From UHGV virus genome UHGV-0211740: a stretch of 64,000 nt of DNA. The stretch is one strand, 5' to 3'. Within the stretch, counting starts at the first letter, position 1; the number at the start of each line of letters is the position of its first letter. Below the pieces are notes generated by a model. That model was not told the DNA's origin. It saw only the letters and a program-made list of their open reading frames with translations, and did no database searches. The stretch is from a virus. Both the position numbers and the translations under genes were made by a program. This document shows, in pieces, positions 9,276-9,779 of this stretch.

Positions 9276-9779
9276 CATAAAGAATATAACTAAAATAACT
9301 AAAGAATAAAAATAAAAAGATCTAGTACTTATTGTACTAAAGTGCATATACTTAACTTATGTAGAATATACTAGATCTAAAGTACTATGTTTTAAATTTA
9401 TTACTTACTGGTATAGTGTCGGCCCTTCATTGGCACTCGCCTATGAGGGGCGAGATGCCGGGCCTCCATAGTGCACACAATAACAGGCGTGCATACGTGC
9501 ATGGCTGTTCACATGTGTGGGAGCGAAGCTATAGCGCAGGCCAAAGGCCGAGCACTAATGTGGACCGCCGACGAAAGCTTGCCAGCGCAGTAAGGAGTCG
9601 GTTGGGAGTCTCCCGCGCGAGTTTGTTTAAAGTTTATGTGTGGAAACTGGCAAGAAGGCCTCTAAATCGCTCTACAGCTGTGTGAACTACACTGGGTAAG
9701 GCAATCACACCAGTTTGATAGAAAAGCTCGTTACAAAGCGATACAGTGAGTTTTTCTATAACCTGAAGAGGAGTCAGCT

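Follow-up and report, generated by a model that had tools for sequence, protein, structure and literature searches.

The GC-rich gap at 9418-9779 of the window, i.e. the whole 64,000-nucleotide stretch of viral DNA analysed here (UHGV-0211740), is a real and previously undescribed non-coding element of rV5-like coliphages (genus Vequintavirus), and the comparative evidence favours a folded RNA of the plus strand. The element lies next to what looks like the replication origin of these phages, and its core of roughly 105 nt is also carried by small E. coli plasmids that look like satellites of these phages. As this assignment is based on sequence comparison without expression data, we regard both its transcription and the role proposed below as inferences.

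A conserved non-coding element

The GC content rises to 0.56 (9400-9599) and 0.53 (9500-9699), in contrast to 0.335-0.40 just upstream and about 0.42-0.45 in the neighboring genes. The gene order on the plus strand is a P-loop kinase, a metallophosphoesterase, a 116-aa HTH protein, a non-coding stretch of about 660 nt containing the element, the rV5 ORF77 homologue, small ORFs together with a second GC-rich gap, and six tRNA genes. In detail, the region is composed of the following parts:

8769-9119, plus strand: 116-aa winged-helix/HTH protein, a candidate replication initiator (context, not part of the RNA), with a promoter-like site, TTGACA-18-TATATT, at 8705-8734
9189-9276: four tandem 21-22-bp repeats (spacing 21, 21, 22), each a dyad (TGTCCGTGATACGGACA), iteron- or operator-like binding sites
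9279-9415: A+T-rich stretch, a candidate unwinding region, with two AGATCTA..GTACT repeats and the inverted repeat AGATCTAGTA / TACTAGATCT
9418-9468, plus strand: 5' hairpin domain (hairpin 1), GGCCC/GGGCC, GGCA/UGCC and CUCGCC/GGCGAG, with a 6-nt bulge and an A bulge
9482-9509, plus strand: variable hairpin, AACAG..CUGUU enclosing UGCA-UACG-UGCA
9514-9619, plus strand: core domain, a predicted three-way junction with the closing helix UGUGUGGGAG (9514-9523) and CUCCCGCGCG (9610-9619), hairpin A (9536-9553), the junction AUGUGGA (9558-9564) and helix B, GCCGAC (9567-9572) with GUCGGU (9597-9602), capped by a 24-nt region (9573-9596)
9620-9717, plus strand: 3' domain, fold unresolved, with the conserved motif CUCUAAAUCGC (9660-9670) and CUACAG..AAC, both shared with plasmid versions
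9718-9779, plus strand: terminal hairpin AUAGAAAAGCUC (9718-9729) with GAGUUUUUCUAU (9748-9759), 92% complementary, then the Shine-Dalgarno sequence AGAGGAG (9767-9773) of the next gene
9780-10358, plus strand: rV5 ORF77 homologue, 192 aa, unknown function (PHROG 12226, no Pfam hit; context only)

The 700 bases around the element match 119 phage records at 80-97% identity, all of them rV5-like myoviruses, although some are labelled 'Campylobacter phage'. The element itself is present in these 119 records at 86-97% identity, and the island alone (9410-9780) is 90-95% identical in 106 of them. Mean pairwise identity is 97.8% for hairpin 1 (9419-9468), 96.3% for the core (9514-9619) and 97.2% for the terminal part (9701-9779), compared to 89-94% for the flanking genes, whereas the variable hairpin (9469-9511) and the 3' domain (9620-9700) reach 76.7% and 88.5%. 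Invariant columns amount to 96% in hairpin 1, 44% in the variable hairpin, 69% in the 3' domain and 92% in the terminal part, the latter including the phage contig L002 described below. In rV5 and Murica an 18-nt deletion in the variable hairpin leaves the inner UGCA/UGCA hairpin intact. The 5' boundary is sharp: the IMG/VR and metagenome phage contig L002 (= L021) carries a different HTH gene, different repeats and a different A+T-rich stretch, but becomes about 90% identical to the window exactly from GTCGGCCC (9418-9425) through to ORF77. Homology to the plasmid locus L008 begins at the same position.

The only ORF of the island, a GTG-started, Arg-rich 89-aa frame at 9416-9685, is excluded as a protein-coding gene for practical purposes. 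The frame is open in this window and in one metagenome contig, and various annotators have called small ORFs here, but different annotators call different ones. In 9 of 11 phage relatives it is split into 31 + 56 codons or otherwise changed. Variable sites fall 13/16/10 over its codon positions, against 18/7/52, 9/10/33 and 19/11/52 in the three flanking genes. Furthermore, there is no Shine-Dalgarno sequence and no Pfam or PHROG hit, and the helix-preserving double changes are non-conservative at the protein level.

The element also matches no known RNA family. A search with the 4227 models of Rfam 15, including tmRNA, RNase P RNA, group I/II introns, 6S, SRP, riboswitches, C4 antisense RNA, pRNA and GOLLD/ROOL, revealed only 5 tRNAs in the whole window at gathering thresholds. 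At E<=10 the best overlapping hit in 9100-11400 was rli43 with 20 bits against a threshold of 100, which lies mostly in the A+T-rich DNA and is a chance hit. Three plasmid loci searched at E<=1 gave only a terminator-like ctRNA hit elsewhere. ARAGORN found six tRNAs at 11660-12468 and nothing at 9400-9800. The sequence-only reading, which had proposed a structured RNA or a replication or packaging cis element with an ORF that is not protein-like, and which could not match it by eye to tmRNA, RNase P RNA or group I intron cores, is supported in these points. A resemblance of GAGTCTCCCGCGCG to the E. coli type I-E CRISPR repeat and of the end of hairpin 1 to a tRNA-like NCCA end was dropped after inspection by eye, as the repeat hairpin is missing and the base after UCC is variable. 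No paper in the literature searched contains the sequence motifs or describes the element.

Plasmid homologues and the predicted fold

Folding of the single sequence is only modestly better than that of shuffled sequences (z -2.2 on the plus strand, -2.65 on the minus strand), and phage-only alignments were too conserved to give covariation in the core. The case for a fold therefore rests on comparative data. A sensitive BLASTN search against complete E. coli genomes and PLSDB identified partial homologues (83-86% over 60-200 nt) in unannotated DNA of circular 13.2-13.7 kb plasmids, and three times in a 39.6-kb plasmid. A metagenome pattern scan (8 true loci and 3 chance hits) and look-ups through the plasmid capsid protein added more, so that in all thirteen plasmid-type loci were read (L008-L014, L017, L019, L030-L033). 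The plasmids encode a major capsid protein of the same PHROG as that of the phage (phrog_29), a Dit-like distal tail protein (51% identical to window 29079-29693), a neck / tail-completion protein (43%, 22233-22655), a tape measure (26%, 26573-28048) and an HTH_36 / O-like replication-initiator candidate, whereas no terminase or portal was recognisable. Therefore, they look like plasmid-borne satellites of rV5-like phages. The island is the only non-coding DNA they share with any phage record. We found nothing on these plasmids in the literature searched, and a recent review states that only one phage satellite has so far been shown to be a plasmid (PMC12282955).

Three sequence classes of the core exist, the phage type and two plasmid types, the second with sub-variants, and all can be drawn as one three-way junction. 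It consists of the closing helix, UGUGUGGG(AG) with (CU)CCCGCGCG, hairpin A with a 2-bp outer stem, an internal loop, a 4-bp inner stem and a 3-4-nt loop, the conserved joining strand AUGUGGA, the 6-bp helix B capped by 24 nt that are identical in the phages and in plasmid class 1, and GAGU before the closing strand. MAFFT alone aligns helix B unambiguously and shows CCGAC/GUCGG in the phages against CUGCC/GGCAG in the plasmids. Hairpin A and the second plasmid class were aligned by hand with the structure in mind, and the compensatory changes come from few independent lineages (three or four classes). Pairs were counted on hand-curated alignments of 15 and 19 sequences. On the 19-sequence alignment 99.2% of 379 cells form standard pairs, 7 of 20 pairs have changes on both sides (three in hairpin A and four in helix B) and 3 more show G-C to G-U only. 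None of 500 shuffles reached the observed pairing or covariation score, and sliding the partners by 1-3 columns dropped pairing to 29-49%. RNAalifold, given only the alignment, recovered the same helices. In addition, hairpin 1 shows two compensatory pairs in plasmid L008, where GGCA..UGCC becomes GUCA..UGAC and CUCGCC..GGCGAG becomes CUCUCC..GGAGAG.

The sequence-only reading had noted the local complement CTCGCC (9436-9441) / GGCGAG (9449-9454), which is present and is part of the longer hairpin 1, in which GGCCC (9421-9425) pairs with GGGCC (9460-9464) and GGCA (9432-9435) with TGCC (9456-9459). It had also suggested a long-range pairing of GTCGGC (9418-9423) with GCCGAC (9567-9572), which is not supported: GCCGAC pairs locally with GTCGGT (9597-9602), this local helix covaries in relatives, and plasmid L008 keeps GTCGGC but has GCTGCC at the other site. 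The fold of the 3' domain could not be settled; the RNAalifold helices in this part are weakly supported. The motif C[CU]CUAAAU[CG]G of this domain occurs only here in the 64-kb window and once or twice in each plasmid RNA. Neither CUCUAAAU nor UGUGUGGG is recurrent upstream of genes in the window, and the idea of a general phage promoter motif was therefore rejected.

The closing helix contains three invariant U-G pairs, and in five lineages (L002, L030/L031, L032, L033) its 3' strand differs only by C-to-U at positions opposite G, which keeps the pairing as G-U. On the minus strand these would be A-C mismatches. Consensus folding energy is -31.6 kcal/mol on the plus and -26.0 kcal/mol on the minus strand, or -32.8 against -23.8 with one sequence per subtype, and all flanking genes are on the plus strand. 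This favours a plus-strand RNA, though a single-stranded DNA form is not excluded. A functional minus-strand RNA, for example a counter-transcript that runs towards the iterons and controls replication or copy number, is very unlikely. In the plasmids a hairpin followed by a U-rich tail does read as a minus-strand terminator at the upstream end of the element, with weak minus-strand promoter-like sites at its downstream end. Moreover, single-sequence z-scores are similar on both strands, and hairpin A and helix B are mostly Watson-Crick and would form on either strand. However, the closing helix cannot form on the minus strand, the consensus energy is 6-9 kcal/mol worse there, and no minus-strand promoter or terminator is seen in the phage.

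A covariance model (R1) finds exactly one copy in the window and in each phage or plasmid locus, at 55-90 bits. It finds none in syntenic loci of Mydovirus, Seunavirus and Justusliebigvirus phages. The syntenic loci of other Vequintavirinae and Stephanstirmvirinae genera contain the RNA-repair genes but no HTH/iteron/RNA module, so the module is not essential to the replication of this phage group in general. IMG/VR scans added only one contig and no relatives of the satellite capsid, and scans of GTDB genomes by DNA pattern and by capsid protein gave nothing.

Origin-like context and possible roles

The HTH protein upstream of the element matches Pfam HTH_36 (E 1.6e-5) and DUF6945 as well as PHROG 12838 'replication initiation protein' (E 3.5e-72), with weak hits to lambda-O-like initiator PHROGs (E 1e-3 to 5e-5 for the O-like hits). 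The four dyad repeats, which are annotated as repeat_region in phage magaca, and a 137-bp A+T-rich stretch (GC 0.335 over 9200-9399) abut the element. The cumulative GC-skew minimum of the window lies at about 7.7-8 kb, although this is also where gene orientation flips. The order of initiator-specific repeats, A+T-rich DNA and the RNA in a fixed orientation also holds in L002 with its unrelated initiator and repeat cassette and in all plasmids, each with its own iterons followed by an A+T-rich AATAGA stretch, where the initiator gene lies downstream instead. As the downstream genes differ between phage and plasmids, the constant partner of the RNA is the iteron module and not a particular gene. 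The origin itself is inferred from sequence anatomy and weak family hits.

Based on this context, we tentatively propose that transcription running out of, or through, the origin produces a folded RNA of roughly 360 nt, and that a factor common to all these elements, either helper-phage-encoded or host, binds its junction core. Such binding would couple transcription at the origin to the start of DNA synthesis by origin activation, priming or replisome recruitment, and the plasmids would keep the same core so that the machinery of the helper acts on them during infection. No consensus sigma-70 promoter was found between the A+T-rich stretch and the element, so the RNA may simply be part of the transcript from the 8705-8734 promoter, which would cross the repeats.

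Alternatively, the element might be a cis-acting leader or intercistronic RNA that controls ORF77 and the tRNA-containing operon in the phage and the rep-to-tape-measure operon in the plasmids, either by binding a protein or small ligand at the junction or by making RNA polymerase resistant to terminators as HK022 put RNA does, and the plasmids would use it to switch on when the factor of the helper appears. We consider this possible but unlikely. It is in line with the orientation in phage and plasmids, the unbroken conservation down to the Shine-Dalgarno sequence of ORF77 with an invariant hairpin just before it, the aptamer-like junction with conserved residues, and a 16-nt stretch of helix B that resembles the ribosome-binding region of ORF77. 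On the other hand, the downstream genes are unrelated in phage and plasmids, and the terminal hairpin and ribosome-binding part was not found in the plasmids, where strong sigma-70-like promoters sit between the RNA and the operon. ORF77 is restricted to the same roughly 120 phage records, but a 50%-identical homologue in another phage contig (L028) has no such RNA upstream, which also weakens the idea that ORF77 is the obligate protein partner of the RNA. No riboswitch or leader family matches, and the distribution, only Vequintavirus phages and one E. coli plasmid family, is far narrower than that of known riboswitches.

A DNA-level signal, such as the packaging recognition (pac) region or primosome or primase entry hairpins at the origin, copied by the plasmids so that the terminase or replisome of the helper accepts their DNA, also appears unlikely. 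rV5-like phages package by the headful mechanism (PMC8407724; PMC13211470), which, together with the sharing of the island with plasmids lacking a recognisable terminase, makes this reading attractive. Furthermore, TGTGTGGG recurs at about 50-bp spacing in the plasmid versions and is 20-fold over-represented in plasmid non-coding DNA on both strands, and small perfect hairpin modules occur in both orientations. Nevertheless, compensatory changes with conserved loops, three invariant G-U (G-T) pairs in an 8-bp helix and C-to-U-only variation opposite G are what selection on a folded single strand predicts, and RNA tolerates them far better than DNA does. In addition, the element lies about 4 kb upstream of the large terminase gene (13569-15999), whereas pac sites seem to be located usually in or next to the small terminase gene.

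A more far-reaching and rather doubtful possibility is that the folded RNA is the handle by which a so far undescribed family of plasmid-borne satellites plugs into the replication or packaging machinery of rV5-like phages, i.e. an RNA-based helper-satellite recognition element at an iteron origin, and that the phage itself depends on this RNA as a working part of origin firing. No such RNA component is known for iteron-type origins or for satellite hijacking. If our reading is right, it adds a new structured RNA family with an unusual distribution, a strictly lytic phage genus plus small plasmids with diverged copies of its capsid and tail genes, and points to an RNA component at an iteron-type origin or at least to an RNA signal shared by helper and satellite. 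It also flags a probable new family of plasmid-type satellites in E. coli. As rV5-like phages are used in therapy cocktails, elements that ride on them and a conserved cis or trans RNA that they need would have practical relevance.

Comparison with known systems

The ColE1 RNA II primer and the T4 oriF/oriG R-loop RNAs appear comparable as transcripts made at a replication origin, next to an easily unwound region, whose folding matters for starting DNA synthesis. However, these origins seem to have no iterons or initiator protein, ColE1 has an antisense RNA I and its origin at the 3' end of RNA II, and there is no sequence or Rfam similarity. Here, a role in priming or activation is only inferred. 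Lambda-type and iteron-plasmid origins appear comparable, as an O-like or HTH_36 initiator candidate, four tandem roughly 21-bp dyad repeats and an A+T-rich stretch are followed here at once by a G+C-rich structured segment, although the origin function is only inferred. In lambda, the iterons lie inside gene O and the neighboring palindrome is short, and no 360-nt conserved folded element with covarying helices is known there.

The phi29 packaging RNA (pRNA) and HK022 put RNA are phage-encoded structured RNAs that work as parts of a machine (packaging motor, RNA polymerase) rather than by base-pairing to a target and are possible models for a junction-centred RNA, but there is no sequence or model similarity, and no evidence links the element to the motor or to antitermination. 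P4 CI RNA and P1/P7 C4 antisense RNA are small structured RNAs of a satellite or phage-plasmid that act through repeated short complementary motifs, and the plasmid versions described here carry 3-5 copies of UGUGUGGG together with CCCGCGCG or CCCACA complements. The Rfam C4 family does not match, size and fold differ, and a strictly lytic phage carries the element too. Finally, helper-satellite shared cis signals, such as P2/P4 cos and pac mimicry by transducible plasmids, are likewise non-coding sequences shared between a phage and small elements that carry a subset of related virion genes. Those signals are recognised as duplex DNA, whereas here a fold with compensatory changes and G-U pairs is conserved, and its position is beside iterons and not beside the terminase genes.

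A probable plasmid-type satellite family in E. coli

The plasmid-type loci carrying the RNA (L008-L014, L017, L019 and L030-L033; e.g., NZ_CP020521.1, NZ_CP178698.1, CP148565.1, NZ_CP035869.1, CP134895.1 and NZ_CP043822.1) are circular E. coli plasmids of 13.2-14.3 kb. They carry a capsid gene, a Dit-like gene, a neck gene and a tape-measure gene related to rV5-like phages, together with an O-like/HTH_36 Rep gene with plasmid-specific iterons and about 30% non-coding DNA, whereas no terminase or portal is recognisable. Therefore, these plasmids probably represent an undescribed plasmid-type satellite family. 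The capsid protein family is narrow and comprises 18 clusters at 82% identity or more, all from E. coli. In one of these plasmids, L008, a perfect DnaA box (TTATCCACA) followed by an inverted CCACACAG..CTGTGTGG is located at about position 2738-2775 in the non-coding DNA upstream of the plasmid capsid operon, and a TATAAATA motif lies nearby. It is therefore possible that the vegetative origin of the plasmid is not, or not only, at the iterons.

Repeats in the plasmid and phage versions of the RNA

In the plasmid RNA regions, the plasmid versions carry one to four extra modules, each of which consists of three small perfect hairpins or one long hairpin and is followed by UGUGUGGG. One module is in reverse orientation and flanked by CCACA-type repeats. 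Examples of these regions are:
L014, 4700-5000, minus strand
L012, 1395-1900
L013, 1400-1750
In addition, TGTGTGGG occurs 10 times in the 13.7-kb L008, where 0.4 is expected, mostly in non-coding DNA and on both strands. These sequences might be insertion modules, protein-binding repeats or alternative pairings.

In the phage window a 16-nt direct repeat was found at 9593-9608 and 9769-9784, in which the 3' side of helix B (AGGAGTCGGTTGGGAG) resembles the ribosome-binding region and start of ORF77 (AGGAGTCAGCTATGAG). The plasmid form AGGAGGCAGCAAAGAG resembles the ORF77 region of other phages. This could be due to chance, but a shared protein-binding site is also possible.

Genomic surroundings in rV5-like phages

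Beside the element itself, three further regions of the window are noteworthy:
10930-11165, a second conserved GC-rich non-coding stretch (island II), between 10876 and the ATG at 11222
13569-15999, the large terminase gene in two pieces
6713-8721, an RNA-repair-type gene set

Island II has a GC content of 0.50-0.54 and a promoter-like site lies at 10867-10895. The hairpin GGUCCAGGACGCUGGACA shows two compensatory pairs in the metagenome phage contig L002. This stretch is probably another structured RNA. It has no Rfam match and no copy in the plasmids. The two pieces of the large terminase gene (13569-13997 and 14911-15999) are separated by an endonuclease-VII/HNH-like ORF (14153-14803), which suggests a homing-endonuclease or intron-type insertion. 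It should also be mentioned that 18 GenBank records named “Campylobacter phage” are near-identical to rV5-like coliphages across the region of the RNA. The host labels look doubtful.

Contig L002 (1819-2640 and 3569-4432), which derives from one rV5-like metagenome phage, has exchanged the HTH gene, the repeats and the A+T-rich stretch for an unrelated cassette (a 143-aa HTH protein with TGCATCAGAT-type repeats), but it kept the RNA from its first base. It also has an extra 287-aa ORF after ORF77. The RNA-repair-type gene set, which contains an RnlA-like RNA ligase on the minus strand, a P-loop kinase and a metallophosphoesterase, lies just upstream of the origin-like module and about 3 kb from the tRNA cluster. 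In other Vequintavirinae genera the same genes are contiguous, without the HTH/iteron/RNA module.
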